Of a DNA stretch of 64,000 nucleotides, positions 7,491 to 47,161 are shown piece by piece. The first letter of the stretch is position 1. Every line of letters begins with the position of its first letter. The stretch is from positions 46,272-110,271 of the IMG/VR virus record IMGVR_UViG_3300021560_000013. The stretch is one strand, 5' to 3'. Below the pieces are notes generated by a model, which saw only the letters and a program-made list of their open reading frames with translations, did not search any database and was not told where the DNA came from. Origin of the DNA: a virus. Both the position numbers and the translations under genes were made by a program.

Positions 7491-7802
7491 TCAGGCGGCG
7501 CTCTGGGGGGCCTTCTGGGGCCATAGCCCCGCCATCCGCTCGCGCGCCCCGGCGGTCGTCCAGATCGTCACACCGAATGACGGCGGCGAGCCGATCCGGC
7601 ACTCGCCTTCGAGCGTCAGCCACTCCAGGCGCGGCCTGCCGTCCCGGTCCTCCAGGTCCATCGGGTCAAGGCACCGGCGGCGCGTCTCCGGATCGCTGGA
7701 GCGGTAGTCGCCCGTCCGGTGGATGTCGAACGCCTCGACGGAGTGGAAGTGCCTGCCGCAGGCACTGCAATGGTTGGTGCAGGTGACGGTCTTAGCTGGC
7801 AA
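7491..7802 (-). CDS. FDxHR-type zinc-binding protein
   Basis: HCSACGRHF.S..AFDIHR...RCLDP. Confidence 0.7.
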   Translation of the reverse strand: MPAKTVTCTNHCSACGRHFHSVEAFDIHRTGDYRSSDPETRRRCLDPMDLEDRDGRPRLEWLTLEGECRIGSPPSFGVTIWTTAGARERMAGLWPQKAPQSAA

Positions 7803-8724
7803 CGGGCTCCTCGACCGCCTCGCCCTCGATCGGGATCGAGCCCCCGTTGCGCAGCACGAAGTCCGTTACCTCCTGCAGGATCTCCGTCCGCTTCGCCAGG
7901 TCCGCCCCGGCGAGCTTCAGCCGCACCTTCTGGGGTAGGAATGATCCGGGCCGGACACGGTTCGCCTCAGCGAACGCCACCTGCAGCTGTCGGGCAAGCT
8001 CGTCGTCCGGCCCCCAGTCAGGCTCCTGGTCGATCGGCGCGCCCAGGTCGATGATCCCGCCGAGCTTCTCGTCGTAGCGTGCGCCCACCTCGTCCTCGGG
8101 GATCAGCCCGGTGATCGAGAACTGCTTGCGGAGCACCATCGACTCGGCGCACTTCAGGATCATCGCGTCCGGGTACTTGCCCCAGGACTTCTTCATGTTC
8201 GGGCGGTTGTACTGGGCGAACTTCGCCAGGAAGAACGTCGGCACGCGCACGCCCCGGTAGCACATCGCCCACGCGCCGACGATGTTGCCCTTCAGCCGCT
8301 CCTCGGCGGCGATCTCGTCGTAGGTGTGGACGAACCCATCCTTGGTGCGGGCGATCTTGTCGGTGGCGTAGATCACGTCGCCGTTCATCCCGCCGAAGTC
8401 GTCGTAGCGGTTCGCGATCGCGAGCAGCCCGTCGCGCGAGACGATTGTCACCCACGTCGGCTCCTCGCCGTCGCGGCCCGGCATCTTCGCCAGGTACACC
8501 TGCCCGGCGAACGGGTCGAGCTTGTAGCGCCCCGTCAGTTCGAGGAACATCAGGAACGCGTTGTCGTCCGCGCCGCGAGCGACCGTCCGCTTCATCAGCG
8601 CCAGCTGCTCGTTGTCGAACGCGAACCGCGCCGGACGCGTCAGCGGCGTCGGCATCGCGCGGACGATCATGCCGGGGTTGTCGCCCGGCGGGGCCTCCGG
8701 GGGGGCTGTCTCGGTCTCAGCCAT
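7792..8724 (-). CDS. bet: Bet/RecT-family single-strand annealing recombinase
   Basis: FL......LDPF..QVY, IVSRDG...IA, GAWA..YR, W...P..MI.KCAE...LRK.F. Confidence 0.85.
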   Translation of the reverse strand: MAETETAPPEAPPGDNPGMIVRAMPTPLTRPARFAFDNEQLALMKRTVARGADDNAFLMFLELTGRYKLDPFAGQVYLAKMPGRDGEEPTWVTIVSRDGLLAIANRYDDFGGMNGDVIYATDKIARTKDGFVHTYDEIAAEERLKGNIVGAWAMCYRGVRVPTFFLAKFAQYNRPNMKKSWGKYPDAMILKCAESMVLRKQFSITGLIPEDEVGARYDEKLGGIIDLGAPIDQEPDWGPDDELARQLQVAFAEANRVRPGSFLPQKVRLKLAGADLAKRTEILQEVTDFVLRNGGSIPIEGEAVEEPVAS

Positions 8725-9937
8725 TGCCTGCCTTTCTCGCTTCCACCTGCGCCAGCGATGCCTCCAGCTGGCGCAGCAGTTCGTCGTCTACTTCCTCGGG
8801 CACGATCGGAGGCTTCGGGATGTGGATGTCGAACCGCGTCCCGATCTCCTCACGGTACAAGTCCTCGATCGACTCGCCCACCTGCAGGCCGCGCTCCAGC
8901 TGCTCCATCGTCGGGCGCGCCACCCGGCGCTGCACCCGATGGCCGTACACCCGGTTCGCCTTCGCGTCCTTCACCGGGATCGGACCGTGAACCGACGCCC
9001 ACGCCTTCGCCGCCTCCTTGTTCTGCTTGATCGCCTTCTCGGCCACCAGGATCTGAGCGACCACCTCCTCAGCCTCCTCCGCGTTGCGGATGCGGCCCCG
9101 ACGGCGCGCCGTAGGGAAGATCGGGCACGCCGTCGGGCGGGGGCAGTGGCCGCAGTGGTTACCCGGCGAGGGATGCCAGGTCTCCTCCTCGACCGAGCGG
9201 TCGAAGCGTTCGATCAGCGCCGACATCGTCAACTCGATCTCGTCCAGCTGATCGCGATACAAGGTCGCCTGTCGTGGCTGGGAGTAGCGGGGGTAGAACT
9301 CGCGCAGCGTGATCGACGTGAGCGGCGCGTGGTTCTTGAAGCCGAGCAGCGCGTAGGCCCGCTGCTGGAAGAAGCCCGACTCGGAGATCTCCGAGGGCGG
9401 CGGCAGCCACCAGCCGGTCTTCCAGTCGATCACGATCCCGTGCTCCAGGTTCTCGCCTTCCGCGAACAGCGCGTCCAGCTGGCCGGTGAACACCCGGTCC
9501 ACCTGCCCGCCGTACGGGTTCGGGTAGCGCACGACCGTGTCCAGCCGCTGCTCGATGTCCACCAGCCCGGCGATGTTCCACTGCGTCTCGGAGGCGAACT
9601 TCTTCGTCATCCACAGCAGATCGTGGATCTCGGACATCGGCACGTTCACCATGTCCGCGATCGGCACGTCCGCCTGGCGCAGCGTCTCCAGCATGATCGC
9701 GAGCGCTACGTCCACCTCGATGCGCTCCTCGCCGTGCGCGGCCATCTCCCGCAGCATCTTCGCTGCCGCCCGGTGCCAGATGATCCCCCGGCCCGACGCC
9801 GCGTCCGAGAACGTCTTGCGGTACCGGCGCTCGAACAGGCTCATCAGCCCGCACTCGTCGTAGTCCGACAGGGTGCTTTGCCGGACCCTCGGGAACTCCT
9901 CCAGCGCCTTCGGATACGGCGTCGCTGCTACCACCAC
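8717..9937 (-). CDS. PD-(D/E)XK exonuclease (RecB/Cas4-like, Cys cluster)
   Basis: G.LD...IDWKTG...Q..AY, C-terminal HCGHCP....CP; paired with Bet; CGACCGAGGAGG RBS. Confidence 0.8.
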   Translation of the reverse strand: MVVAATPYPKALEEFPRVRQSTLSDYDECGLMSLFERRYRKTFSDAASGRGIIWHRAAAKMLREMAAHGEERIEVDVALAIMLETLRQADVPIADMVNVPMSEIHDLLWMTKKFASETQWNIAGLVDIEQRLDTVVRYPNPYGGQVDRVFTGQLDALFAEGENLEHGIVIDWKTGWWLPPPSEISESGFFQQRAYALLGFKNHAPLTSITLREFYPRYSQPRQATLYRDQLDEIELTMSALIERFDRSVEEETWHPSPGNHCGHCPRPTACPIFPTARRRGRIRNAEEAEEVVAQILVAEKAIKQNKEAAKAWASVHGPIPVKDAKANRVYGHRVQRRVARPTMEQLERGLQVGESIEDLYREEIGTRFDIHIPKPPIVPEEVDDELLRQLEASLAQVEARKAGNG

Positions 9938-15337: not shown

Positions 15338-15371
15338 TGGCTCTCTCCTTGGTCGGGGTCCACCTAGAGTA

Positions 15372-15390
15372 TAGCGCACGATGTGAGCCA
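15372..15390 (-). promoter_or_regulatory. 19-bp palindrome/-10 promoter
   Basis: TAGCGCACGATGTGAGCCA; runs into TATACT on minus strand. Confidence 0.7.
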
Positions 15391-22877: not shown

Positions 22878-24632
22878 GTGACGCTCAAGCTCGATCCGCG
22901 CAGCAGCTTCGGCATGACCGTCACCGACGCGTTCCTGGACGCGCTCGAATCGGACATCGCCGCGCACGAGCAGCGCCGGGCGAGCTTCCTGCAGTGGGCG
23001 CTCAAGGTGCCCGAGACGCGCGGGCCGCTGAACTTCGAGCGCTGGCCGTTCCAGCGCGAGCTATACGAACAAGGGTTCGATGACCGCGAGGTCGTCGTTA
23101 TGAAGGCCACCCAGCTGGGGATCTCCGCATGGCTCGTCCGGTGGGCGCTGTGCTGGGCCGACATGCACGCCGCCCGCGTCCTTTACATCTTCCCCCGCGA
23201 GCGCCAGCTGCTCGACTTCTCCGACGGCAGGATCAAGCCGCTGATCCTGGGCGAGTACCTGCGCACGCGCGTGCCGCCCGCGAGCGTGATGAACAAGACA
23301 CTCAAGTCCGTCGGGCTCGGGATCATCTACTTCCGAGGCTCCGAGGCCGAGGCCGGGCTGGAGTCGATCGACGCGGACGCGCTCGCCCTGGACGAGCACG
23401 ACCTGCTGGTGCAGGCGCACATCCCCATCGCGGAGCGCCGCGTCGGCGGGCAGGACTCGCTGGGCCTGATCCGCCGGATCGGGTTCCCGACGATCTCCGA
23501 CCACGGGATCCACAAGGAGTTCAAGAAGACCGACCAGCGCCAGTGGACCGTGAAGTGCGAGCACTGCAACGAGTGGCAGGCGCTGACGTGGGCCGAGAAC
23601 ATCGACCTGGAACGCGAGATCCGGATCTGCCGGGCGTGCCGGGCACCGCTGGACGTGACCCGAGGCGAGTGGGTGGCGAGCTACCCGGACCGGCGGGTGC
23701 GCGGCTACCACGTCACGAAGCTGATGCTGCCCGAGCCGATCATCGTGCCGAAGCTGATCGAGGCGTCGCGCGAGATGGTCACCTACAAGCGCCAGATCTT
23801 CTTCAACCGGGACCTGGGCGAGCCGTGGGAGGCCGAGGGCGCGCGGCTGACCCCGGCGATGATCGCCGCCGCCCAGCGCGGCTACACGCAGCAGACCGGC
23901 TACGACGGCGTCAAGCCGGTGATCATGGGGATCGACGTGGCGAGCGTTCGCGCGCTGAACGTGTGGATCACCGAGCGCACGAGCGACACGACAGGCCGGG
24001 TGCTGTACCTGGGGCTGGTGGACAGCTTCGATGAGCTTGCCAAACTGATGGACCGTTACCGAGTGGTGATGGCGGGGATCGACCACCTCCCCGAGAACCG
24101 CCTCGCGCAGGCGTTCGCGAATCGCTTCGCCGGGCGCGTGTTCATCATCAACTACGGGACCGACACTCAGCGCGACGTTCTCCAGGTGGACGATGGTCAG
24201 CGTCGCGCGAGTGTCCGCCGGACCGAGGCGATCGACGCGGCGCAGGAGCGCATCCGGGCGCAGCGCGAGTATCTGCCGCAGGATCTCCCGAGCGACTTCG
24301 TGGAGCAGATGTGCTCGAACGTGCGCTCCGTCGAGCAGGACGACGTGGGGAAGGTGAAGGTGCTCTACCGGGCCGACGGGCCGGACGACTGGATGCAGGC
24401 GCTCACGTACGCGGTCGTGGCCGAGGAGTGCTGGTGGATCCGCCAGCAGGTGGATCACGAGGAGGTGTTCTCGATCGACCAGATGGAGCAGCTGGGGTTC
24501 GAGCGCTCGACGCTGCGCGACCCCGAGTCGATGGACTACTCACCCGGTCGCAGCGACGGCGAGTACGCGATCACCAACGGGCATGTCAACGGCGACGGCT
24601 ATAGCGACGAAGAGGGCTACGACTGGGGATAG
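22878..24632 (+). CDS. terL: Terminase large subunit (lambda GpA-like)
   Basis: PFQRE, MKATQLGIS, DE.D Walker B, CEHC/CRAC, FFN..LGEPW, GIDV nuclease motif. Confidence 0.9.
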   Translation: MTLKLDPRSSFGMTVTDAFLDALESDIAAHEQRRASFLQWALKVPETRGPLNFERWPFQRELYEQGFDDREVVVMKATQLGISAWLVRWALCWADMHAARVLYIFPRERQLLDFSDGRIKPLILGEYLRTRVPPASVMNKTLKSVGLGIIYFRGSEAEAGLESIDADALALDEHDLLVQAHIPIAERRVGGQDSLGLIRRIGFPTISDHGIHKEFKKTDQRQWTVKCEHCNEWQALTWAENIDLEREIRICRACRAPLDVTRGEWVASYPDRRVRGYHVTKLMLPEPIIVPKLIEASREMVTYKRQIFFNRDLGEPWEAEGARLTPAMIAAAQRGYTQQTGYDGVKPVIMGIDVASVRALNVWITERTSDTTGRVLYLGLVDSFDELAKLMDRYRVVMAGIDHLPENRLAQAFANRFAGRVFIINYGTDTQRDVLQVDDGQRRASVRRTEAIDAAQERIRAQREYLPQDLPSDFVEQMCSNVRSVEQDDVGKVKVLYRADGPDDWMQALTYAVVAEECWWIRQQVDHEEVFSIDQMEQLGFERSTLRDPESMDYSPGRSDGEYAITNGHVNGDGYSDEEGYDWG

Positions 24633-27914: not shown

Positions 27915-27933
27915 TAGCGCACGACGTGTGCTA
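27915..27933 (+). promoter_or_regulatory. 19-bp palindrome/-10 promoter (consensus copy, includes upstream stop)
   Basis: TAGCGCACGACGTGTGCTA, -10 TACACT. Confidence 0.85.
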
Positions 27934-27941
27934 CACTCAAT

Positions 27942-28592: not shown

Positions 28593-28611
28593 TAGCGCAC
28601 GATGTGTGCTA
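28593..28611 (+). promoter_or_regulatory. 19-bp palindrome/-10 promoter (includes upstream stop)
   Basis: TAGCGCACGATGTGTGCTA, -10 TACACT. Confidence 0.85.
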
Positions 28612-30362
28612 CACTCTAGGTGGAGGGAATGAGCCCTCCGCTCCCGACCGAGGAGGACGACAGTGACGACCGAGGCACGACACATCCTCGACCCAGAGGG
28701 TGCCGACGCCGCGACGATGAATAGCTGGAGTGACCGTCACCCGGCCACCATCGTCAAGCGCACGGCCAAGACGATCTGGGTCCAGGAGGACCGCGTCGTG
28801 AACATGAGCAGCGAAGAGACCCGCGAGAGCGGTCTCGCCTTCGCTCAGGGTCACGGTGACGTGACTGTGTTCACCCGCGACTACGACGCGCCGATCCGCG
28901 AGTACCGGCTCCGCAAGAACGGGCGCTGGATGGCGAAGGGCGCGCCGATGAACAGCCGGGGCTCCAGCCTGAGCATCGGGCGGCGCTCCTACTACTACGA
29001 CCCACACTTCTGAGGAGGTGACGAGGATGGCAAGACGACAGATCATGGACGGCACTGGCTGTGTCGAAGGTCTGGAGACGTACGTCAACCGGATCACCGG
29101 CGAGCCGGGCCGGATCAAGGTGGCCGTCGAGGGCGGCGAGATCGTGGCAGTGCTCTGCTGCTGGTTCGCGGCCTGCGAGAACGAGGCCATCAGCACGGAG
29201 GCACATCCGATCCTCGGCCAGGTGCCGATCTGCGACCGGTGCGCCGAGAAGGTCGAGGCGATGACATGAGCGCCGAGACCAGGACTCCGGAGCGAGTCGC
29301 TGAGCACGCCCAGGAAGCGTTCTGGGCGGCGGTGGCCGAGAGCTACCCGGAGGTGACGACCGGCGACTTCCCGCCCGGCGATGACTTCCCGCTCGCGCTC
29401 GCGATGGAGCGCGCGATCGAAGCGTGGCTGATGTGGAACTGGCCCGAGGGCTCGAACCCGCCGGGTTGGAAGTGCCCGCGCTGCGGCGACGACAGGCGCG
29501 GCTGCGACCGCGACGAATGTCGAAGCATGTGACCAGATGATCTCGTTCAGTACCGCGACCGACGAGGAGCTTGTGGCGATGCGTGAGGCGATTGACGCGC
29601 TCACGCTCGCCCAGCCTGCGGCGATCCACGACGACCCCGCCTGGTGCGAGATCGTCCACGCGGTGATGGGCGAGGTTTACGCCAGGCAAGTCTGGCGGCA
29701 GATAGCAGCATGAACACCGACCGAGGAGACACGATGGACGAACCACGCATCACGATGAAGGACCGCAGCATCGTTGCGGACTACCTGATCAACACCGACA
29801 ACGAGGGCCGCAACGGCGCGGAGCGACGGCACTACGCCGCCGTCACCGTCGGCTACACGAAGGGCGGCATGAACTACTTCTCCGGGAAGTCGAACGCGCG
29901 GGGCTACTACGCGTCGATCAACCGGGAGACCGAGTCGAGCGACGGGATCTTCACGTCGCGCAGCTTCACGCTGTTCGCTGGGCTCGGGCTCATGCGCTCA
30001 GAGCCGGTGGGCCGGTTCTCGCAGAAGGGCCTGAACGCCTTCTTCGAGGAAGTGATGGAGGCGATGCCCGCGCTGCGCACCGACGAGCGTGTGGCGGCGT
30101 ACTTCGAGCCTGCGGAGGTGCCCGCATGACTCGCACGATGAAGCTGGCCCTGGAGGCCCTGATCGACGTGCAGCGCCGGGAGTCCTTCCGGCCCGAGGTG
30201 GCCGACCAGATCCCGGATGAGACGGTGCTCGGCGTCATGGTCGCCCGGTACCTGGGGGACGGCGCGGCGGTGCTGGAGGTGTGCGTCGGTGCGCTGACGG
30301 ACCTGAACTACCACGAGGACGCCGAGCGCGTCCGCGAGATCCTAGAGCGAGTCACCACGTAC

Positions 30363-34996: not shown

Positions 34997-37045
34997 ATGG
35001 CGCGTGACAACAGCGGCCTGATCGGGCGCGCCCGAGAGATCCTGGAGGAGCGCACCGGCAAGACGATCATCGACCAGGAGCACCTGAGCCTGCTGGAGGC
35101 CAGCGATGTCGAGCGCCGGGCGATGCAGAAGGAACTGGACCTGCTCGGCTGGTACGTGCTCGACTACATCGGCGGGCAGCCGCAGGAGGTGAAGGCGACC
35201 GAGCGCCGCAAGATGGCGGCGCAGGCGCGCATGGTCTGGGTGCAGGATCCGGTGGCCGGGGCGAACGTCGATCTCAGCTGCCAGTTCATCTTCGGACGTG
35301 GCGTCCCCAAACCGAAGGCGGCGGACGACAAGGTCCAGGAAGTCATTGACGAGGCGTGGGACGACCCGGACAACAAGGCGACGCTGACCACGTTCCCGGC
35401 GCAGACGGCGCTCTGCACCGACCTGGTGCTCCAGTCGAACCTGTTCATCCTGTTCTTCGAGGGCGACGACGGCAAGGTCAAGCTCGGGATCCTCGACCAC
35501 GACTCGGTGGAGGACGTGGTCCGCGACTCGAACAACCGGCTGCGCGTCCTGTACTACGTCGCGCGCCGCCGCGAGTACGGCTGGGACTACGTCATGGACC
35601 GGCCCGACATCAAGGCCCAGATGGCGCAGCAGGACCCGCGCAAGCCGCGCGTCATGTACTACCAGGCGCTCGCGGCGACCGACCCGGAGACCGGCGAGCT
35701 TGACTCCCAGGACGACGCCTGCCCGCCCGAGAAGCTGGGCGAGGGGCTCGTCTACCACATCGCGATCAACCGGGGCTCGGAGCAGATCTTCGGCATCCCG
35801 GCGATGCGCCGGATCGTGAAGTGGATGGCCGCGCTGAACGACTTCATGGCGGCGCGCGTGGACCTGACGCAGGCAGCTGCCGCGTTCATCATGCGCCGGA
35901 CGGTGCAGGGCTCGCCGCAGCAGGTGGCGGCGATCGCGGCGAAGGCGATCTCGCGCCGGTCGGGCCTGGCGGCGACATCGGTGGACGACCCGACGATGGG
36001 CACCGTGCAGGCCGGGCCGAGGCCGGGCTCGATCCTGAACGAGAACCAGGGCGTCAAGACCGAGCCGTTCGCCGTGTCAACGCAGGCGGCGCAGGCGGCG
36101 CAGGACGCGCAGATGATCCGCTCGCAGATCTCCTCCGCGACGTGGCCGCAGCACTACCTCGGGGACCAGAGCAACGCGAACCTGGCGACGGCCACCGCGC
36201 TGGAGCTTCCAGTAGTCAAGAAAGTAGAGGCGTACCAGGAACTGTTCGAGGGCCTGTTCCGCACGTTCATCGACCGGGCGATCCAGAACGCCGTGGACAA
36301 CGGCACGCTGCCGACCGAACTGACCGATGAGGAGCGCGCCAAGCTCAAGGCGAAGAAGCCCGAGAACCAGACGCCGGGCTCGCCGCCGCCGGACGCGCCC
36401 GGCGCGCCGCTGCAGTCCGAGCCGCCCGCGTCGATGACAGACGTGCCGTCGCAGAACGGCTCGACGCAGCTGAGCGCAGGCTACGAGGGTCAGACCGAGG
36501 ACGAGGAGGACACCGAGCGCGACCTGAGCTACGAGTTCGCGATGCCGTCGCCACTCAAGCGCCAGATGGCCGACCTGATCAACTCGATCGCGAACCTGGC
36601 GCGCACGTTCGACCCGAACAACACCAACCTCGAACTGAGCCGGACGCTGCTCGCTGTCGCGCTCGGCCAGGGCCTGGAGCTTGCCGATCCCGCAGCTGCC
36701 GTCGATCGGATCCTGCCCGAGGGCTACGTCGATCCGATGCTGGCCGCGCAGATGGGCGGCGGTGGCGGTGGATCGCCCGGCCAGGTCCCACCGCCGCCGC
36801 CGCTGATCCCGACCGGCGACACCGGCCCGAACATGTTCGGCCCCGGCGGACCGCCGCCCGGCGCAGGACCCGAGCCGAACCAGAACCCGTACGGCGCGCA
36901 GGGCTGGAGCAGCAACTACCAGGACAACCAGGGCCAGCCGATGTACCAGTCGCGCGACGAGGAGCTAGACGCGATCTGGGAGCAGGAGCTTGCCGAGGTG
37001 GTCGAGGGGTTCCTGACCGCAGCCGCCCAGAACGGGCGCGGCTAA
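34997..37045 (+). CDS. Portal protein
   Basis: Size, helical core, HIAINR...FG.P, P.HYLGD.S.ANLATA..LE; upstream of MuF; Pro/Gly-rich tail. Confidence 0.8.
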   Translation: MARDNSGLIGRAREILEERTGKTIIDQEHLSLLEASDVERRAMQKELDLLGWYVLDYIGGQPQEVKATERRKMAAQARMVWVQDPVAGANVDLSCQFIFGRGVPKPKAADDKVQEVIDEAWDDPDNKATLTTFPAQTALCTDLVLQSNLFILFFEGDDGKVKLGILDHDSVEDVVRDSNNRLRVLYYVARRREYGWDYVMDRPDIKAQMAQQDPRKPRVMYYQALAATDPETGELDSQDDACPPEKLGEGLVYHIAINRGSEQIFGIPAMRRIVKWMAALNDFMAARVDLTQAAAAFIMRRTVQGSPQQVAAIAAKAISRRSGLAATSVDDPTMGTVQAGPRPGSILNENQGVKTEPFAVSTQAAQAAQDAQMIRSQISSATWPQHYLGDQSNANLATATALELPVVKKVEAYQELFEGLFRTFIDRAIQNAVDNGTLPTELTDEERAKLKAKKPENQTPGSPPPDAPGAPLQSEPPASMTDVPSQNGSTQLSAGYEGQTEDEEDTERDLSYEFAMPSPLKRQMADLINSIANLARTFDPNNTNLELSRTLLAVALGQGLELADPAAAVDRILPEGYVDPMLAAQMGGGGGGSPGQVPPPPPLIPTGDTGPNMFGPGGPPPGAGPEPNQNPYGAQGWSSNYQDNQGQPMYQSRDEELDAIWEQELAEVVEGFLTAAAQNGRG

Positions 37046-39103: not shown

Positions 39104-42094
39104 GTGGCGGTCCAGCCCGCTGATCAGCAGCCCCAGCCGGTCCATCCGGATGTCCAGCGGCTGATCGACGCCGCGCAGATCGGCGCGACGATCCAGGCGG
39201 GCGTTGCCGTGTCGAAGGCGGCGGTGACAGCCGGGCCAATCGCGGTGACCGTGCTGCCACGCGCCGCAGCGGAGATCGTAGGTGCGCCGGTCGAACTGGC
39301 GGCGCACGCCGTCAAGTGGGCGGTCATCCTCCGCGTCCTGCGCCGCCTGTTCCGGCGGCATCACATGGAGACCGCCAGCTGGCTGGAGACGCAGCTGCGC
39401 AAGCAGTTCCCCGACCTGGATCCGGCGGTGATCCGGCAGGCCGTCGAGCAGGAGTTGAAGTTCGAGCGCGCGTTCCAGGCGAAGGCGCTCAAGCGCGCCG
39501 AGGCGGACTTCCACGCGGCGGGCCAGCTGCCGACACCCGAGGCGCAGGCGACGCGCGTCCAGCAGATCCTGAACCGCGAGAAGCACTACAGCCAGCTGCG
39601 CGAGCAGGCGCTGCTCGACCGGGCGATGCGCTTCTGCCACAACGCGACGGTCAAGGCGATCTCGCCGGACGGCGCGAAGTGGGTGCTCGGCCAGCGCAAG
39701 ACGCACACGCCGGGCTGCGTCGCGATGGCGGGCAAGAACTGGCCGTGGCCGGTGCTCGACGTGATCAACCCGCCGGTCCACACCGGGTGCGGCTGCGAGC
39801 TTCGACCGCTCAGGCCGGGCGACACCGTCCCGCCAGTCGGCACGGCGATGAACCTGGCCCGCCAGGCGATGGCCCTGGAGGAGGCTGTAAGGGCCGCTGC
39901 GCCCGGCGAGATCGAAGCCTGGCTCCAGGGTCAGGTGGTGCGCCCCGTGGTCGCCAGGGCGCTCCAGCGGCTCCAGGAGGGCACGTACGAGGAGGCGCTC
40001 CACCCGCGTGGCCGTGGCGGCAAGTGGATCGGCAAGCTGCTCAGCAGCCCCGGCTTCACGCAGCGCCGCCAGGCGCACGAGGTCCACGACGCGTTCCGGC
40101 GCGGTGAGGACGTGAGCGTGAGCAAGGTGGTCGATTCGCGCGCCGAGGCGACCAAGCAGTTCAAGACCGACTTCCTGGCAGCGATGCGCGAGGCCCGGCC
40201 CGGCTACGGCACCGGCAAGGTCCAGATCGCGGAAGGCTCGGTCGATGATCCCGAACTGATCAAGCGCGTCCAGCAGGCCGCTGAGTGGTTCCCGAAGGAA
40301 TGGATAGACAGGGCCGGACCGCTCCGCGTGGTCGAGTCCAAGAGCCCCGGCGTCTACGCGCTGCGCGCCGAGGTGGCGAAGGACCACATCTCGACCATCG
40401 CGCTCCGCAAGGACTCGTGGGAGAAGAACATCGTCCACGAGATGATGCACTGGCTAGAGGAGAAGAACCCCGAGGTTCACAAGGCGGCGCAGGAGTTCCT
40501 CGACCGCCGCACCGAGGGCCAGGAGATCGAGCCGCTGATCAACGGCGCGCCGCACGAGGAGGTGAAGGAGGGCGGCTTCGTTGACCCGTACATGGGCAAG
40601 ATCTACAACCACCCGTCCACCGAAGTGCTGACGATGGCGATGGAGGGGCTGGTCGCAGGGGCGATCCGCGTCGAGGACGACCCGGACCACTTCGCGATGC
40701 TGCTGAGCACGCTGACCGGCCAGAAGGTCGAGCCGTCCGAAGTCGGCACGTTCGGCCAGGGCTTCGACCTGAGCGGACTGAAGACGGCCAAGGCCAAGAC
40801 GGCGGCGACAGCTGCCGCCCGCGCGATCGAGACGGCGACCGGCGTCGTTCACCCGGTGAAGTTCACTCACCTGGATCCGGACGATCCGGCGACGGCGCGC
40901 TCGCTCCCGAGCGGGCACATCGCGGTGGACGAGAGCACCAGCCCGCACTTCCAGATCTCCGCGATCGTCCACGAGTACGCGCACAACATGGACCGGTCGG
41001 TGCTCGGCTCCGAGGACGACTGGTTCACCCAGCACGCGGACGAGTCCGGCCCGCTCTACAAGGCGCTGATGGCGTCGCCCACCGTCCAGAAGATCAAGAA
41101 CGACGAGGTGGAGATCCTGAAGGGCGACCCGCGCACGACGGCGCAGCTGCTCCAGGCCCGCGAACTGTTCGCCCGAGCGTTCGAGCAGTACGTCGCGATG
41201 CGCGGCGGCAACGAGCGGCTGCGCGAGAACCTGCGCAAGCTCCAGGGCGACCGGCTGCTCAGCTTCCAGCAGTGGCAGGACGACGAGTTCAAGCCGATCG
41301 CCGCCGAGATGGACAAGATCGTGCGCCAGCAGCACGCCGTCCAGGAGAGCAAGTGGACCGAGTGGCTCCACCCGCGTGGACGCGGCGGTCAGTGGGTCGA
41401 TGCGATCCAGCACGTCAGCAAGGAGATCGAGCAGCCCGAGGCGCACGAGGGCTTCACCGGCGAGGACTTCGCCAGGGGGCTGGACGGCTTCACGCACGGC
41501 GACCTGACGGCGATGCGCATGAACCGCACCGACACGCAGAACCTGTTCGGGGAGGTCTGGCTGAACGTGTTCCACAAGGGCCGGGGCGAGCCCGTCGGCA
41601 TGGCGCGCGTCACGATCAAGCCGCCGACCAACCAGGGCGTCCGCTCGATCGAGTTCAACAACATCGTGCTCAAGGAGGCCGAGCAGAACCAGGGGTTCGG
41701 CAAGGCGTTCACCGATCACCTGTTCAAGGTGGCGCGCGAGGGCGGCGTGGACAAGATGGAGATCGAGGCGGTGTCCGTCGGCGGCTACGCGTGGGCCAGG
41801 CGAGGGTTCGTGTGGACCGGCGACAAGGGCGCGCAGCAGCGCGCGATCCTGGCCGACGCGAAGGAGAAGGGCCGCTACCAGGCGATCCAGGAGCACGTTC
41901 GGCAGAAGCTCCTGGAGGAGCTTGACCGCAAGATCGCTGCCGGTGAGTTCACCAGCGAGGCCGAGCTTGCCGCGTTCGGCCACGGCGAGTACTGGAAGGA
42001 CGAGGACGGCAACCGCACCTGGCTGGGCAAGGAGTTGATGATGGGCTCGCACTGGGAGGGCGACCGCCCGATCACCGTCACCACTAGCGCATGA
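39104..42094 (+). CDS. MuF-like minor head protein fused to two zincin-like domains and a GNAT acetyltransferase
   Basis: C...G....PPVHTGCGC MuF motif; HEMMH..TEVLTM; HEYAH..ELFARAFEQY; QNQGFGK..GGYAWARRGF. Confidence 0.8.
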   Translation: MAVQPADQQPQPVHPDVQRLIDAAQIGATIQAGVAVSKAAVTAGPIAVTVLPRAAAEIVGAPVELAAHAVKWAVILRVLRRLFRRHHMETASWLETQLRKQFPDLDPAVIRQAVEQELKFERAFQAKALKRAEADFHAAGQLPTPEAQATRVQQILNREKHYSQLREQALLDRAMRFCHNATVKAISPDGAKWVLGQRKTHTPGCVAMAGKNWPWPVLDVINPPVHTGCGCELRPLRPGDTVPPVGTAMNLARQAMALEEAVRAAAPGEIEAWLQGQVVRPVVARALQRLQEGTYEEALHPRGRGGKWIGKLLSSPGFTQRRQAHEVHDAFRRGEDVSVSKVVDSRAEATKQFKTDFLAAMREARPGYGTGKVQIAEGSVDDPELIKRVQQAAEWFPKEWIDRAGPLRVVESKSPGVYALRAEVAKDHISTIALRKDSWEKNIVHEMMHWLEEKNPEVHKAAQEFLDRRTEGQEIEPLINGAPHEEVKEGGFVDPYMGKIYNHPSTEVLTMAMEGLVAGAIRVEDDPDHFAMLLSTLTGQKVEPSEVGTFGQGFDLSGLKTAKAKTAATAAARAIETATGVVHPVKFTHLDPDDPATARSLPSGHIAVDESTSPHFQISAIVHEYAHNMDRSVLGSEDDWFTQHADESGPLYKALMASPTVQKIKNDEVEILKGDPRTTAQLLQARELFARAFEQYVAMRGGNERLRENLRKLQGDRLLSFQQWQDDEFKPIAAEMDKIVRQQHAVQESKWTEWLHPRGRGGQWVDAIQHVSKEIEQPEAHEGFTGEDFARGLDGFTHGDLTAMRMNRTDTQNLFGEVWLNVFHKGRGEPVGMARVTIKPPTNQGVRSIEFNNIVLKEAEQNQGFGKAFTDHLFKVAREGGVDKMEIEAVSVGGYAWARRGFVWTGDKGAQQRAILADAKEKGRYQAIQEHVRQKLLEELDRKIAAGEFTSEAELAAFGHGEYWKDEDGNRTWLGKELMMGSHWEGDRPITVTTSA

Positions 42095-42103
42095 TGTGCG
42101 CTA
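42085..42103 (+). promoter_or_regulatory. 19-bp palindrome/-10 promoter
   Basis: TAGCGCATGATGTGCGCTA, -10 TACACT, near-leaderless to ATG 42119. Confidence 0.8.
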
Positions 42104-42118
42104 CACTGTAGTCAGACT

Positions 42119-45100
42119 ATGGATTGGGCGACAGCAGCAGCAACCGTGAGCGACAGGGCAAACCTGTCCGAGCCACCCGACGCGCCCGGCGATGACTGGG
42201 ACTTCTGGGACGAGGTGCAGAAGCTCGTTGACCCCGAGCTTCAGGAGGCATACGCAGCAGAGCTTCACCCGCGCGATCGCGCCGGGCGCTGGATGGAGAA
42301 GCTGGGGCTGAACCGCCTGCACGAGGTGGGCGGCGCACCGCGCGACGACCTGCTCGGCAAGATCCCGAAGGACATCGACTACATGGCCGTCGAGTCACCC
42401 GAGGAGATCCAGCGCAAGGTCGAGGCAGCTGGAGGCAAGGCCGAGCCGCTGATGGTCCGAGACCGGCTCGTGGGCGTTCGCGCGACGCACCCGGATCTGC
42501 CGCCCGGCGGCGTCGAGATCGTGCCGCCGCGCGTCGAGCAGTCCACCGGCGAGGGCCGACACGACTTCGCGATCGTGCCTCATCCCGGCCTGGGCACCGG
42601 CGCGAGCCCGGAGCACATGATCTCCGACGACGCGCAGCGCCGGGACTTCACCGTCAACGCGATGTACCACGACACGGCGACCGGCGAGACGGTCGATCCG
42701 ACCGGCCACGGCGTCGAGGACGCGCGCACGCGCACGCTGCGCATGGTCCACGACCAGAGCTTCCAGGAGGACCCGCTGCGGATGCTGCGCGGCGCACGGT
42801 TCGCCTCACAGCACAACCTGACGCCGGACCCGGCGACGTTCGCCGCGATGCAGCGCGACTCCGGAGGCATGACCGCGCTCACGCAGAAGGGTGTGAGCGG
42901 CACCGTCCAGGACGAGATGCGCAAGCTCCTGATGGGCGACAACCCCGGCAAGGGCCTGCGACTCATGCGCGACACCGGCATGCTGCAGCAGCTGCTGCCC
43001 GAGCTTGCGCCGATGGTCGGGTTCGACCAGCGCTCCGTCTACCACGAGCACACCGTGGATGAGCACACGTTCGAGGTGGTTGACGAGTTGGCGAAGGCGG
43101 GCGCGAGCTACGAGGCACGGCTCGCGGCGCTGTTCCACGACTCGGGCAAGCCAGCGACCGCGAACCTCAAGCCGGACGGCCACTTCCGCTTCCACTCGCA
43201 CCCCGAGCACGGCGATCACCAGGACGTGGGAGCGCAGATCGCGCACGACACGCTGAGGCGGCTGAACTACCCGAAGGACACGCTCGACCACGTCACCGGC
43301 CTGGTGCGCGAGCACATGCTCACCGCCGTCACCAAGCCGACGCCGGTCAAGGCCAGGCGGCTCCGAGCCCGCTTCTCGGACAAGTTCCTGACCGACCTGC
43401 TCGACCACAAGGCCGCTGACATGGAGGGCCACGGCGACATGGTGGCGAAGGACCGCGAGGGGATCGGCAAGCTCCGCGCGCTGCTGGCCGAGAACGCCGA
43501 CGCGCCGCGCTCGCTGAAGGATCTGAACGTCAACGGGCACGACCTGATGGCCGAGGGAATCGCGGAGGGTCCGGTGATCGGCCAGACGCTCAACCAGCTA
43601 CTACGCGAGGTCGTGGACAACCCGGACCTGAACCGGCGCGAGTGGCTGCTGAACCGGGCTGCGAAGCTGGCGGCGCTGAGCACCCAGGAGTGGGCCGCAC
43701 TGGAGGAAGCGAACATCTACGAGGAGGCGCTCCACCCGCGCGATCGACTGGGCAAGTGGATGTCCAAGGAGTTCGGTGAGCAGCTGGCCCGGCCCGGCAA
43801 CAAGCGCAGCGGGAAGAAGCCGACGCCGTACAGGCCCGCGCAATGGACCGACACCGGCCAGGACTTCCAGACGATGGCGCACGAGGCCGCGCAGCTGGTT
43901 CACCCCGAGGGGACGCCCGAGGAGCACGCCGAGATCGCCAGGGCCGTGACTGCCGACAGGCCACCGCCGAGGGGCGTGAGCAAGGAGGCGAAGAAGGCGG
44001 CGAAGAAGCTGCGCGACAAGAGCGCGCCCGAGGGCCGCTGGGGCCAGTACATCTACCGGCTGCACGGCATCGCCGCCGCCGCTCACGCCGACCAGACCGA
44101 CCGGAGCGGCAAGCCGTACATCCAGCACGTCGAGGCGGTGGCTGACTCCGTCTCGGATGAGGCCAAGCCGGTGGCGCTGTTCCACGACGCGCTGGAGGAC
44201 GCCGAGCTAACGCCCGAGGTGCTGAAGGCGGCGCTGACCGAGCCGCACGTAATGACCCCCGAGCAGGCGCAGACGATCGTTGACGCGATCGGGCTGCTGA
44301 CCCACGACGACGCGGAGTCCTACGGCGAGTACATCGACCGGCTCGCGAACGCGCCGGGCAAGGCGGGCGAGCTTGCACGCGAGGTGAAGCGCGCCGACCT
44401 GCAGCACAACCTGGGCCGCATGACCCCGGAGATCGTCCGCGACGCGCCGCAGCTGCAGGAGCGCTACGGGAAGGCGCTGCGGACGCTCGCGCCCGAGCGC
44501 ACGCCGATCTCGCAGCGCGGCGCGCCGCTGAACGTGAACAACCTGGACGAGGCGACGGTGCTGGCCCGGCTGCGCAAGCTGTACGAGGCGAGTGAGCAGG
44601 CGGGCACGGCTGAGATCGAGAAGCACTGGTACCAGCAGGCGCACGACGAGATCGCCGCGCTGGCCGAAGAGCACGACGTTGACCCGCATGTGCTCGCCGC
44701 GATGGTGGCCGCGACATCGCCGCAGCTGACCTGGCGTCACGAGTTCAAGGACGGGCGTGTCAAGTACCCGAACCTCGAACTGGCGGTCAACGCGATCAGG
44801 CTCGCGCGCCGCTACCCGGACGAGCCCGCGCCGAAGCTGGTGGACCGGCTGGTCGAGGCGTCCACGAAGCGCACGCCCGAGGAGCGCAAGGCCGGACCGA
44901 GCGAGCTTGGTGGGCTGGGCGAGTCGATCCTCAAGGCGATCCGGATCTACCGGGGCGAGGATCCCGAGCGGGTCCTCGGCGCGCCCAAGACGCGCTCGTT
45001 CGCGAACAACCTGACCTACCCGGACCAGGCGACGACGGTCACGATGGACGAGCACATGGCCCGCGCGGTGATCGGCCAGGTCAGCAAGGAGGGCTACGGC

Positions 45101-45289
45101 GGCGGCGCAGGCGTGTTCAACGAGACCGCCGAGGGGTCGGGCTACACCTGGAGCGCCAACATGGTCAAGCGGCTGGCCGAGGAGAAGGGCGTCCTCCCGC
45201 ATCAGGCGCAGGCGATCGTCTGGGTGGCGCAGAAGGCGCTCGCGGACGCCGCCGAGGCCGAGGCCAAAGCCGCCAAGGCGAAGGGCTAA
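42119..45289 (+). CDS. Polyprotein: class II CCA-adding enzyme with HD domain + RelA/SpoT-hydrolase-like HD domain + HhH-glycosylase-like domain
   Basis: VGG..RD.LLG..PKDID, RRDFTVNAM, EDPLR.LR..RF, LFHDSGK; AH.DQ.DRSGKPYI.H..LFHD.LED..VK.AD..HN; WY..AH..AATSP..PKT.SF..N..T.D.H..QA..W. Confidence 0.85.
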   Translation: MDWATAAATVSDRANLSEPPDAPGDDWDFWDEVQKLVDPELQEAYAAELHPRDRAGRWMEKLGLNRLHEVGGAPRDDLLGKIPKDIDYMAVESPEEIQRKVEAAGGKAEPLMVRDRLVGVRATHPDLPPGGVEIVPPRVEQSTGEGRHDFAIVPHPGLGTGASPEHMISDDAQRRDFTVNAMYHDTATGETVDPTGHGVEDARTRTLRMVHDQSFQEDPLRMLRGARFASQHNLTPDPATFAAMQRDSGGMTALTQKGVSGTVQDEMRKLLMGDNPGKGLRLMRDTGMLQQLLPELAPMVGFDQRSVYHEHTVDEHTFEVVDELAKAGASYEARLAALFHDSGKPATANLKPDGHFRFHSHPEHGDHQDVGAQIAHDTLRRLNYPKDTLDHVTGLVREHMLTAVTKPTPVKARRLRARFSDKFLTDLLDHKAADMEGHGDMVAKDREGIGKLRALLAENADAPRSLKDLNVNGHDLMAEGIAEGPVIGQTLNQLLREVVDNPDLNRREWLLNRAAKLAALSTQEWAALEEANIYEEALHPRDRLGKWMSKEFGEQLARPGNKRSGKKPTPYRPAQWTDTGQDFQTMAHEAAQLVHPEGTPEEHAEIARAVTADRPPPRGVSKEAKKAAKKLRDKSAPEGRWGQYIYRLHGIAAAAHADQTDRSGKPYIQHVEAVADSVSDEAKPVALFHDALEDAELTPEVLKAALTEPHVMTPEQAQTIVDAIGLLTHDDAESYGEYIDRLANAPGKAGELAREVKRADLQHNLGRMTPEIVRDAPQLQERYGKALRTLAPERTPISQRGAPLNVNNLDEATVLARLRKLYEASEQAGTAEIEKHWYQQAHDEIAALAEEHDVDPHVLAAMVAATSPQLTWRHEFKDGRVKYPNLELAVNAIRLARRYPDEPAPKLVDRLVEASTKRTPEERKAGPSELGGLGESILKAIRIYRGEDPERVLGAPKTRSFANNLTYPDQATTVTMDEHMARAVIGQVSKEGYGGGAGVFNETAEGSGYTWSANMVKRLAEEKGVLPHQAQAIVWVAQKALADAAEAEAKAAKAKG

Positions 45290-45305
45290 CTCACGATGTG
45301 CGCTA
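45287..45305 (+). promoter_or_regulatory. 19-bp palindrome with perfect -10 (includes upstream stop)
   Basis: TAACTCACGATGTGCGCTA, -10 TATAAT; ATG 7 nt later (leaderless). Confidence 0.8.
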
Positions 45306-45316
45306 TAATGAAGGGT

Positions 45317-47161
45317 ATGGATCCAGTTGCCCCCATCACCCCGGACGACCCGGTGAGCATCGACACCTTCGAGGCCGTGATGGCCGCGATGGACGACCTG
45401 ATCGGTGGCGACGGCACGCTCGCGGAGGCGTTCAACCCGAACCAGCCGCGCTTCCCGAAGGGCCACGCGAAGGCGGGCCAGTGGCGACCCAAGCTCGTGA
45501 CCGGCGCAGGCGGGCTCGCGCCCGGCCACCTCGATCGCGACATCCGGAAGATCAACGACCTGATCGAGCAGGGGACCGGCGGCGGCACCGTCGTGAACGT
45601 GTCACCCGGCAGCCTGGACGTGATCGGCCAGCAGGTCGAGAAGGTGGCGCTGAAGTACTCGGCGCGCAAGGTCTACGAGAAGCGTCTGGAGGACATCCGC
45701 GCCGAGCGCACGGCGATCCAGGACGCCAAGTGGGACGCGTACGAGAAGGCGTGGCGCGCCGCGCCGCCGTTCGAGGAGCGCGACCCGCTGGAGCCCGAGG
45801 ACTTCATCGACCCGAAGGACGCCGCCCGGCTGAAGGAGATCGCGGAGGAGGAGATCAAGCTCGTCAAGCAGCGTGACTTCGCTGACCGCGACGCGATGCT
45901 CGGCGTGCTCCAGAAGATCCGCCCGATGGGCGGCAAGCTGAACGTCGCGCCGTGGACCGAGAACAAGATCGAGGCGCGCACCGACAACGAGATCGAGAAG
46001 GCGTACCGCGAGCAGGAGCTAGCGCGAGGAGCGGGCGCGAAGGTGCTGATGCAGCGCGACCTGGAGGCCAACCTCAAGCAGGTGCTGAAGCTGATCCCCA
46101 AGGCGTGGCTGGACGACACCAACAGCAAGGGCACCGTCAACTTCCTGTTCTCCGACACCCGCGCGTACGCCGACACGCGCGAGGAGACGCCGCCCGGCCA
46201 GTGGGACGAGTGGAAGGGTGCGCGCAAGGCGCTCGACACGCTGGCGGGCGAGGGCTACAAGCTGCTGGGCCGCGACAAGAAGGTGAGCACGTTCCTGATG
46301 CTCGAAGCGCCGAACGGCGACGTGGTGGCGCTGCGCTCCGACGGCTCGATCCCGAAGGGCGTCGGTGAGTTCTCCGACACCGCGCTGGTGCTCAGCAAGG
46401 AGGGCACATGGACGCTGCCCGGCTTCACCGAGCACGCGACGGCCAAGGACGCGAAGAAGTTCGTGACGCCGATGAAGACGCTCCCGCCCGAGCCGACGAT
46501 CCCGTCCCCGTCGAGCGCGATGGGCCAGAACTGGGATCCGTACGAGCGCATGCGCACCGCCGTCGCCAAGCGCGAGCAGGAGGGCTGGAAGTTCGTCGGC
46601 ATGCGCGGCAAGTGGGCGACGCTGCGCAAGGGCGACGAGGAGATCTCGCTGAACTGGGCGGGCGACCCGCTGACCAAGCAGGTCGGCCAGGGCGGCAAGG
46701 ACCGGGGTCTCGACCCGCTGAACCCGTACGTGGTGATCCCAGCGCCGCCGGTGCCGAGCCAGACGAACACGACGATCAAGATCGACCCGAGGCCCGGCGA
46801 CAAGGACACGCTGCTGCACGAGCTATGCCACCGCATGGAGGTGGTCTACGGCGAGCAGAACAACGCGGGCTACCACCCGCTGTCGATGGCGATGCACAGC
46901 TTCTTCAACAGCCGCACCAAGGGCGAGGAGACGCAGAAGCTCCGGGACCTGTACCCCGGCTACGCCTACGAGGGCCACGAGATCTCCAAGCCGGACAAGT
47001 TCATCGACGGCTACTGCGGCAAGATCTACAAGGGCGAGAGCACGGAGCTACTGACGATGGGCCTGCAGTACCTGTTCTTCCCCCGCTTCGGCTCAAACCG
47101 TGACGTGAACAAGGATCCGGCGTACCGGCGGCTGATCCTCGGAGTGATGGCGACGCTATGA
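45317..47161 (+). CDS. Probable head-associated protein with C-terminal zincin-like domain
   Basis: FNPNQPR.PKG...AGQW tag; HELCH...RTKGE..DKFID.Y.GKIY...STELLTMG, paralogous to a domain of 39104. Confidence 0.75.
   Translation: MDPVAPITPDDPVSIDTFEAVMAAMDDLIGGDGTLAEAFNPNQPRFPKGHAKAGQWRPKLVTGAGGLAPGHLDRDIRKINDLIEQGTGGGTVVNVSPGSLDVIGQQVEKVALKYSARKVYEKRLEDIRAERTAIQDAKWDAYEKAWRAAPPFEERDPLEPEDFIDPKDAARLKEIAEEEIKLVKQRDFADRDAMLGVLQKIRPMGGKLNVAPWTENKIEARTDNEIEKAYREQELARGAGAKVLMQRDLEANLKQVLKLIPKAWLDDTNSKGTVNFLFSDTRAYADTREETPPGQWDEWKGARKALDTLAGEGYKLLGRDKKVSTFLMLEAPNGDVVALRSDGSIPKGVGEFSDTALVLSKEGTWTLPGFTEHATAKDAKKFVTPMKTLPPEPTIPSPSSAMGQNWDPYERMRTAVAKREQEGWKFVGMRGKWATLRKGDEEISLNWAGDPLTKQVGQGGKDRGLDPLNPYVVIPAPPVPSQTNTTIKIDPRPGDKDTLLHELCHRMEVVYGEQNNAGYHPLSMAMHSFFNSRTKGEETQKLRDLYPGYAYEGHEISKPDKFIDGYCGKIYKGESTELLTMGLQYLFFPRFGSNRDVNKDPAYRRLILGVMATL

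Follow-up and report, generated by a model that had tools for sequence, protein, structure and literature searches.

Why a phage should encode a CCA-adding tRNA nucleotidyltransferase, an alarmone hydrolase and a glycosylase-like domain in a single chain is the question raised by P0001, a gene in the IMG/VR virus record IMGVR_UViG_3300021560_000013 (110,271 bp, linear, estimated to be 89% complete, about 68% GC). The stretch of DNA analysed, referred to as the window, is the final 64 kb of this record. Judged from its sequence, P0001 carries four intact enzyme modules in one phage chain, inside a portal-adjacent block of modular proteins. Its predicted layout runs from a leader ending in a junction tag through a CCA-adding nucleotidyltransferase with its own HD domain, a second tag with a basic linker and an Aph1-type HD domain to a domain of the family DUF7178. 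The reading we favour is that P0001 is a polyvalent multi-tool, which would act at or soon after genome entry and blunt host responses based on adenosine 3'-pyrophosphates and on tRNA ends, and we consider the chances of its being right to be about even.

Defences of the MenT and toxic small alarmone synthetase (toxSAS) classes, which act on tRNA ends, and poisoning by (p)ppApp are common in Actinobacteria. To our knowledge, the counters to such defences known so far are limited to sequestering inhibitors and stand-alone hydrolases. If the favoured reading is true, high-GC soil phages would carry an enzymatic countermeasure to toxSAS and MenT tRNA-end toxins as well as to (p)ppApp poisoning, and the polyvalent repertoire would gain three enzyme types, namely a CCA-adding enzyme, an Aph1-type hydrolase and an HhH-GPD-like glycosylase. 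In addition, the virus-specific DUF7178 gains a predicted fold and a candidate catalytic Lys/Asp pair, and the junction element would mark the limits of cargo modules that can be exchanged, in dozens of giant phage proteins from metagenomes. Each component has a precedent, in phage CCA enzymes, HD alarmone hydrolases, Aph1 or polyvalent proteins. New are the combination of three enzymes, the pairing of an Aph1-type domain with DUF7178, the junction element and the fold assigned to DUF7178, none of them having been found described in the searchable literature; a literature search with the junction motif strings returned no relevant paper.

In its composition (GC content of third codon positions 0.92, of second positions 0.44) the P0001 gene is in keeping with the rest of the genes in this genome (68% GC), and its start is backed by conserved N-termini in the relatives P0005, P0033 and L004. 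Gene contexts of relatives were read from the IMG/VR loci L002-L009 only. Coordinates of all features are collected in Table 1.

Enzyme modules of P0001

The first module (residues 66-518) is predicted to be a class II CCA-adding tRNA nucleotidyltransferase with an HD domain of its own, capable of CCA addition. Motif A (GGxxRD at residues 71-76, DxD at 85-87), motif B (RRD, 174-176), motif D (EDPLRMLR, 217-224, with EDxxR at 217-221) and motif E (265-271) are present, and the Pfam families of the head, the RNA-binding segment, the HD domain and the C-terminal domain 2 all exceed their cut-offs (PolyA_pol 59.4 bits against 23, PolyA_pol_RNAbd 39.4 against 22, the others in Table 1). An earlier sequence-only reading of this locus had named DxD, RRD, EDxxR and the HD domain, and each of them was found. 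The HDIG model stays narrowly under its cut-off on the same module (27.4 against 27.6 bits). Between motifs A and B there are presumably some 18 extra residues, an estimate made against the spacing in the B. stearothermophilus CCA enzyme.

With motifs A-E, an HD domain and a tRNA-binding tail, the module resembles cellular CCA enzymes of the E. coli Cca type (NF008137) and of the actinobacterial PcnA type (TIGR02692). The corresponding models, TIGR02692 tRNA_CCA_actino (E 1.4e-45) and NF008137 multifunctional CCA addition/repair protein (E 1.4e-37), are also the best matches in NCBIfam, each extending over the region of the HD domain, and phrog_2244 (tRNA nucleotidyltransferase) matches residues 70-492 with E 2.6e-56. 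The equivalog cut-offs of both models are missed, with 155.8 against 438.8 bits for TIGR02692 and 129.4 against 451 bits for NF008137, and scores of about one third of the cut-offs suggest a divergent family member and no recent copy of a host gene. From known phage CCA enzymes the module differs in being embedded in a multi-enzyme chain within a structural gene block; a tblastn search of the phage database returned stand-alone CCA genes only, at 26-34% identity. Stand-alone CCA enzymes of large phages were proposed to be tools for tRNA 3'-end repair, and CCA enzymes as well as HD alarmone hydrolases are known in jumbo phages (Iyer et al. 2021, PMC7824862).

The second HD domain (residues 647-787) is predicted to be an adenosine-3'-pyrophosphohydrolase of the Aph1 type, that is, a small alarmone hydrolase (SAH). 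Its membership in the SAHs is concluded from the matches to PDB 7SMG (E 1e-9), the (p)ppApp hydrolase Aph1 and nearest solved structure by sequence, and to phrog_990 (E 3e-25), the Pfam HD_4 score lying under its cut-off (12.8 bits, cut-off 27.2). Rel/SpoT hydrolase domains match at E 6e-5 or weaker. Where the domain had previously been called SpoT/Mesh1-like, the SpoT- or SAH-like part of that label stands, whereas Aph1-like describes it better than Mesh1-like.

The catalytic and metal-binding set of this domain (H656, H670, H689-D690, E693-D694, D760, N764) is kept in 12-13 of 13 homologues. Out of the Aph1 signature (D24, R96, D116, R119, K133, Y134), four residues are identical in P0001 (D661, R741, R767, Y783) and K133 is replaced conservatively by Arg. 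Experiments have shown that D24 and R119 set the (p)ppApp specificity of Aph1 (Ahmad et al. 2023, PMC10083569). Their equivalents, D661 and R767, occur in 13/13 and 12/13 homologues, respectively, and because this pair is kept in the HD clade, (p)ppApp is proposed as a target. The domain is thus like Aph1 in its HD fold, in its metal and catalytic residues and in being phage-encoded, but unlike Aph1, a tetrameric protein of about 150 aa, it is part of a 1,056-aa chain and has no adjacent synthetase toxin.

The C-terminal module belongs to Pfam DUF7178 (PF23802; 76.5 bits against a cut-off of 27, E 3e-21, residues 814-1038), and its nearest Atlas clusters are DUF7178 as well and 92-100% viral. 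The AlphaFold2 model of the domain, for which 14 relatives were aligned, is all-helical and confident (pLDDT 84, pTM 0.83), and in a Foldseek search AGOG and Ogg2 were top-ranked at weak E-values. In this model helix 949-952, the hairpin LGAP and helix 956-966 (PKTRSFANNLT) form a helix-hairpin-helix (HhH), and the helix that follows is capped at its N-terminus by D977, 20 residues past K957. Both residues are invariant in six distant members (25-43% identity), which include mycobacteriophage Scout gp87, annotated 'glycosylase', and Anabaena phage A-4L ORF03. We read them as matching K120 and D138 of endonuclease III, a reading taken from sequence and model, not from a superposition.

The two-lobed all-helical fold of the model resembles that of the HhH-GPD glycosylases (Ogg2 Tm1821, AGOG, MagIII, endonuclease III, MutY) and of QNG1, and the position of the Asp about 20 residues past the HhH at a helix N-cap and of the Lys that opens the second HhH helix agrees with the glycosylases as well. 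Unlike these, DUF7178 has no sequence-profile similarity to any solved member and is a family almost wholly viral: Pfam HhH-GPD did not match the domain, a five-member profile retrieved no chain from the PDB sequences even at E 10, and word-index searches led to close relatives only. No relative was found either when the alignment was compared with one genome per prokaryote species, so that this search gave no prophage copy and no clue to the host. The glycosylase-like nature formerly proposed for the third domain is supported at the level of fold and motif. Modified DNA bases, named at the same time as its target, are one option among several and not supported as stated, since QNG1 (DUF2419) of the same fold family acts on a free nucleotide and a DNA substrate is thus not implied for DUF7178.

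Folds like that of DUF7178 turn up repeatedly inside large phage proteins whose labels read ART-PolyVal or 'large polyvalent protein associated'. As stand-alone genes, Scout gp87 (L015:1644-2216) and A-4L ORF03 (L016:1270-1953) lie among small genes at genome ends, which we take to be early regions, and these two cultured phages would be tractable systems for the function of DUF7178.

Junction element and exchange of modules

The leader of P0001 is shared with proteins of different cargo, namely P0005, P0015, P0033, P0159-161 and a 515-aa protein in L006; the L006 protein has only the leader and DUF7178 in common with P0001. The junction element in which the leader ends is about 25 residues long, corresponds roughly to LxEAxYxExLHPR[DG]RxG[RK][WF] and introduces modules. 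Neither it nor the leader had been named in the sequence-only reading. In relatives it was counted 87 times against 0.1 expected from shuffling, with up to seven copies per protein, and the upstream neighbour P0002 bears two, at residues ~300 and ~756. Orthologue similarity breaks exactly at these elements: identity between P0001 and the L004 orthologue falls from 69% to 49% across junction copy 2, and in P0002 residues 1-309 and 745-995 are kept among relatives while the middle between the two elements is swapped. The basic linker behind copy 2 (residues 550-645) gave no family match. Outside the window, a 960-aa protein (G000:C1:8820-11702, in L010) with PHROG matches to peptidoglycan hydrolases of the endolysin type carries LHPRGRGGKW, and its presence on a lysin-like protein fits an element that marks particle-associated proteins.

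A short N-terminal leader shared by unrelated cargo is a feature of head-packaged proteins such as T4 Alt and the internal proteins and of MuF (SPP1 gp7) fusion toxins. In contrast to the capsid-targeting sequence of T4, to which it is unrelated in sequence, the leader/tag of P0001 is repeated within proteins and also found internally.

The full three-part fusion was found in P0004 (64% identity) and in L003, L004 and L005 only, the latter being phage contigs of 122-125 kb with full-length orthologues at 58-69% identity. The HD hydrolase and DUF7178 form a stable pair, counted in at least 13 proteins with different parts in front of it: only the leader, a Pfam-supported 2H phosphoesterase with GNAT (P0006) or the CCA enzyme. 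DUF7178 is also found by itself. The CCA module is embedded, at 35-56% identity, in many large proteins, mostly without the HD hydrolase; among the best 150 cluster representatives of its relatives, 83 are longer than 700 aa and 57 longer than 1,000 aa. In 36 large relatives the catalytic residues of the nucleotidyltransferase and HD domains, including H…HD…H, are at least 90% conserved and appear to be under purifying selection. Most of the length of the giant proteins has no Pfam match. The other Pfam domains seen in the 36 relatives were GNAT, HicA, SprT-like, 2H phosphoesterase, PcfJ, intein and Tad3, with the domain of the Thoeris inhibitor Tad3 (E 4.7e-29) in one large CCA protein, the HicA toxin in two and the intein in one, and no synthetase of the RelA/SpoT homologue (RSH) type was among these families.

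From the sequences compared, the HD hydrolase with DUF7178 appears as the conserved unit and the CCA enzyme as one of several exchangeable N-terminal partners. A fixed tRNA-repair kit is not supported as a description of P0001, given this exchangeability and the frequent occurrence of the CCA module without the hydrolase. In P0005, the module in place of the CCA enzyme has two HxT motifs that suggest a 2H phosphoesterase at motif level only, as neither Pfam nor BLAST to the 2H domain of P0006 confirmed it.

Possible functions of P0001

Polyvalent proteins, a class described from phages and conjugative elements, are believed to accompany the DNA into the host (Iyer et al. 2017, PMC5512222). P0001 is like them in joining unrelated catalytic domains in one phage chain, in the shuffling of domains between relatives, in the putative zincin-like peptidase segments and the GNAT, ADP-ribosyltransferase (ART) and 2H domains of its neighbours and relatives, in a possible link to MuF-type head proteins, in the vicinity of the portal gene, and in the role at the moment of invasion that we propose. 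Unlike the proteins surveyed, it has neither MuF nor peptidase and bears the conserved element between its modules; the terms CCA-adding enzyme, SpoT-type HD hydrolase and glycosylase are absent from the text of the survey (PMC5512222).

As a polyvalent multi-tool, P0001 would probably be packaged into the head, along with its MuF-type neighbour, by means of the shared leader and tag, and might possibly be cut at the junction tags. The HD hydrolase would remove (p)ppApp and would probably also strip the 3'-pyrophosphate that toxSAS such as CapRel, PhRel and FaRel2 put on A76 of tRNA, while CCA ends that had been damaged or lengthened, for example by toxins of the MenT/AbiEii type, would be cleaned up and restored by the CCA enzyme with its HD domain. 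The glycosylase-like domain would be a third, independent tool, for which a DNA base, an RNA base and a free nucleotide are candidate substrates. Since the modules exchange freely, we think of a multi-tool and not of a dedicated or obligate pathway.

Such a tRNA-rescue and anti-alarmone role is plausible in the light of published precedents. That SAHs counter toxSAS is documented: MESH1 and ATfaRel, the SAHs tested on tRNA, both restore tRNA pyrophosphorylated by FaRel2 (Kurata 2021 preprint) and also hydrolyse (p)ppApp (PMC10083569; Kurata 2021 preprint), and the phage SAH PaSpo neutralises toxSAS (PMC9712102). Among the toxSAS, CapRel defends bacteria against phages and PhRel, encoded by mycobacteriophage Phrann, stops superinfection; both are widespread in Actinobacteria and in the phages of these (PMC9712102). 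That a CCA enzyme can help against a tRNA-targeting toxin is borne out by PcnA, overexpression of which suppresses the tRNA-extending toxin MenT3 in M. smegmatis, an organism in which ~70% of the tRNA genes are without encoded CCA (PMC11541572).

An anti-defence role is favoured because relatives join the CCA module to Tad3, HicA, SprT-like, 2H and GNAT domains and because an ART with GNAT occupies the same slot in L006. Moreover, no tRNA genes were found in the 110-kb record, and the RelA_SpoT synthetase (PF04607) had no match in it at E up to 1, control genomes having scored and the record being 89% complete; both results argue against maturation of phage tRNAs and against self-immunity as explanations of P0001. 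The 'delivered package' formerly claimed goes beyond its basis, which consists of the position after the portal gene, the MuF-like neighbour and the shared leader/tag. The ART relative in the same slot and the MuF-like protein beside the portal gene recall injected-enzyme systems.

Several points weigh against the multi-tool. As to the hydrolase, the Aph1 signature residue D116 is Gly in P0001, and the Aph1 paper contains no tRNA test, the word 'tRNA' being absent from its text (PMC10083569). As to delivery, the MuF-like call on P0002 is based on a model with pLDDT 67 and on weak Foldseek E-values, Pfam Phage_Mu_F had no match in the phage record including the N-terminus of P0002, and P0001 itself has no MuF or zincin domain. 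As to a common task of the modules, an HD_4 domain accompanies the CCA module in just 1/36 large relatives, CCA enzyme and HD+DUF7178 are combined in only four other genomes or clusters, and in two cultured phages neither HD nor DUF7178 was found next to the stand-alone CCA genes; with the CCA module so rarely linked to HD_4, the data do not demand that CCA addition be coupled functionally to de-pyrophosphorylation.

What the portal-adjacent setting adds can be seen when the multi-tool is compared with a simpler arrangement, in which three unlinked intracellular helpers act separately in takeover or maintenance and the fusion only provides co-expression, with no targeted defence and no injection. 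The CCA enzyme would then speed tRNA maturation in an actinobacterial host with mostly CCA-less tRNA genes, the HD domain would clear (p)ppApp or (p)ppGpp and so sustain the metabolism of the cell, and the glycosylase would repair phage DNA. This agrees with the swappable modules, with the promoter-like element in front of P0001, with the mycobacterial situation, where most tRNA genes are without CCA and the CCA enzyme is essential (PMC11541572), and with the stand-alone CCA genes of cultured phages, which lie in surroundings of RNA maintenance (Pth2, RNA ligase, phosphoesterases) outside structural modules. However, the multi-enzyme block close to the portal and the shared leader/tag argue for co-handling with the neighbours, relatives pair the CCA module with the conflict-type domains Tad3, HicA, ART and GNAT, and the signature of the Aph1 type speaks for adenosine alarmones, the products of toxins, rather than for housekeeping ppGpp. 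We therefore regard unlinked helpers as somewhat unlikely.

Unlikely, too, is a stricter version of the multi-tool, a joint antidote delivered in the head, in which the CCA module would tether the hydrolase to tRNA, DUF7178 would be an N-glycosylase of RNA or nucleotides and the element a signal for capsid loading or cleavage. In detail, the CCA module would dock on tRNA 3' ends and the Aph1-type hydrolase would strip the A76 3'-pyrophosphate of the CapRel/PhRel type, after which the CCA enzyme with its HD domain would trim and rebuild ends altered by MenT or AbiEii; LxEAxYxExLHPRDRxGRW would enable swaps of cargo cassettes, and DUF7178 would be virus-specific, with RNA or a nucleotide and not DNA as its substrate.

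The constancy of the HD+DUF7178 pair, together in at least 13 proteins regardless of the preceding module, could also be understood as a kit for end processing, in which DUF7178 excises a base that is damaged or was modified by the host, be it in the DNA of the phage or of the host, the HD domain then cleans the blocked 3' end and the CCA enzyme is a passenger. K957 and D977, invariant and spaced as in enzymes of the endonuclease III type, are in line with this, as are the mycobacteriophage GenBank records in which the DUF7178 family is called 'glycosylase'. Yet the HD domain is nearest to a nucleotide 3'-pyrophosphohydrolase and has adenine-specificity residues that a DNA 3'-phosphatase would not need, DUF7178 also occurs without the HD domain, and QNG1 acts on a free nucleotide, which makes DNA end processing improbable.

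In a further reading, an immunity module, the HD hydrolase would protect the producing or the newly infected cell from a (p)ppApp-synthetase toxin of the same phage (a MuF-toxin) or of competitors. This is suggested by Aph1, the closest solved relative and an immunity protein that a Bacteroides caccae prophage encodes beside a MuF-fused (p)ppApp synthetase (PMC10083569), and by the MuF-like domain of P0002. It is rendered very improbable by the negative searches for a RelA/SpoT synthetase domain in the record, where 89% completeness leaves absence unproven, and among the Pfam families of the 36 relatives. A poly(A) polymerase or other RNA-tailing enzyme that marks host RNAs for decay is hardly credible. 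In its favour, poly(A) polymerases have the same motifs as class II CCA enzymes, several of the top PDB matches are named 'poly A polymerase' and the scores lie well under the cut-offs for cellular CCA enzymes. Against it, the best family matches (TIGR02692, NF008137, phrog_2244) are CCA enzymes, an HD domain and a tRNA_NucTran2_2 tail are typical of enzymes for CCA addition and repair, and PcnB models score lower and cover the head only.

Gene neighbourhood and phage record

Table 1. Positions of P0001, its predicted modules and neighbouring features in the 64-kb window
Feature	Position	Strand	Basis
Portal gene	34997..37045	+	phrog_10963 portal, E 1.7e-29
P0002, 996 aa: MuF-like N-terminal domain, two HExxH zincin-like segments, C-terminal GNAT (predicted)	39104..42094	+	fold search, motifs
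Promoter-like element TGTGCGCTACACT	42095..42107	+	11 nt before P0001 ATG, read from sequence
P0001, 1,056-aa multi-enzyme (polyvalent-type) protein	42119..45289	+	open frame
N-terminal leader, residues 1-62, ends in junction copy 1	42119..42304	+	shared with other-cargo proteins
Junction copy 1, LHPRDRAGRW, residues 49-58	42263-42292	+	motif scan
Class II nucleotidyltransferase head (predicted), residues 70-208	42326..42742	+	Pfam PolyA_pol, E 6e-16
CCA-enzyme neck/body (predicted), RNA-binding segment residues 263-298	42767..43012	+	Pfam PolyA_pol_RNAbd, E 5e-10
CCA-enzyme HD phosphohydrolase domain (predicted), residues 313-411	43055..43351	+	Pfam HD, 30.7 bits, cut-off 22
C-terminal tRNA nucleotidyltransferase domain 2 (predicted), residues 464-512	43508..43654	+	Pfam tRNA_NucTran2_2, 31.8 bits, cut-off 27
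Junction copy 2, LHPRDRLGKW, residues 538-547, boundary of CCA enzyme and HD hydrolase	43730..43759	+	motif scan
Basic low-complexity linker, residues 550-645	43766..44053	+	conserved only in 8 close relatives
Aph1-like small alarmone hydrolase HD domain (predicted), residues 647-787	44057..44479	+	PDB 7SMG, E 1e-9
DUF7178, HhH-GPD glycosylase-like, residues 796-1056, candidate catalytic K957 and D977	44504..45286	+	Pfam, AlphaFold2 model
P0003, 621 aa: degenerate N-terminal leader/tag, C-terminal HExxH	45296..47161	+	phrog_19443 'minor head protein', E 1.6e-7

The P0001 gene comes after the portal gene and a gene for a collagen-like fibre, between the multi-module P0002 and P0003. In the MuF-like domain of P0002 a segment PPxHTGCGC is conserved, and the BFVD matches of its N-terminal model are nearly all labelled 'phage head morphogenesis', minor capsid or MuF-like (E 2e-3 to 5e-2, probability ~1.0) and include MuF-toxin fusions. 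The flanking genes also give a sub-threshold match to LPD1. The order of portal and polyvalent genes A, B and C is preserved in L003-L006 (contigs of 107-125 kb). In L006, a phage of 107 kb, the same block encodes at 7645-9234 a 530-aa protein with GNAT and an ADP-ribosyltransferase exoenzyme domain (Pfam E 6.5e-17), which recalls the packaged Alt enzyme of T4. That P0001-P0003, which share one frame here, could be a single read-through polyprotein was considered and dropped, as the frames differ in L003.

The promoter-like element before P0001 has an exact second copy at 45297-45309 before P0003. The motif TGTGCGCTAYAMT directly precedes the starts of both genes, and from this spacing near-leaderless mRNAs would be expected. 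Looser copies of the motif were located at 27925-27937, 28603-28615 and 15368-15380 (minus strand), and the count in the window, five found against two expected, is not significant alone. The start listed for P0003 (ATG 45296) is doubted because it overlaps the motif; translation probably begins at the ATG at 45317 instead (MDPVAP…), parallel to the MDW… of P0001.

The large terminase gene is located at 22878-24632 of the window, and a major-capsid-like protein, the tail sheath and the tape measure are all encoded upstream of the window in the record, which, as terminase, portal, capsid-like, sheath and tape-measure genes are present, is assigned to a myovirus. A megablast search with 16 kb returned a single 42-bp match and thus no close relative in the phage database. 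According to a sequencing-run search, the same stretch of DNA is present in soil metagenome runs from several studies, and no RNA run was among those listed. The morphogenesis genes are split in the linear record, with terminase, portal and cargo at 69-93 kb and capsid, sheath and tape measure at 21-36 kb, so that there are either two distant morphogenesis blocks or a circularly permuted record. A 386-aa gene at 32422-33582 matches PHROG 6247 'DNA topoisomerase' (E 1.7e-113) and occupies an unusual spot between terminase and portal.

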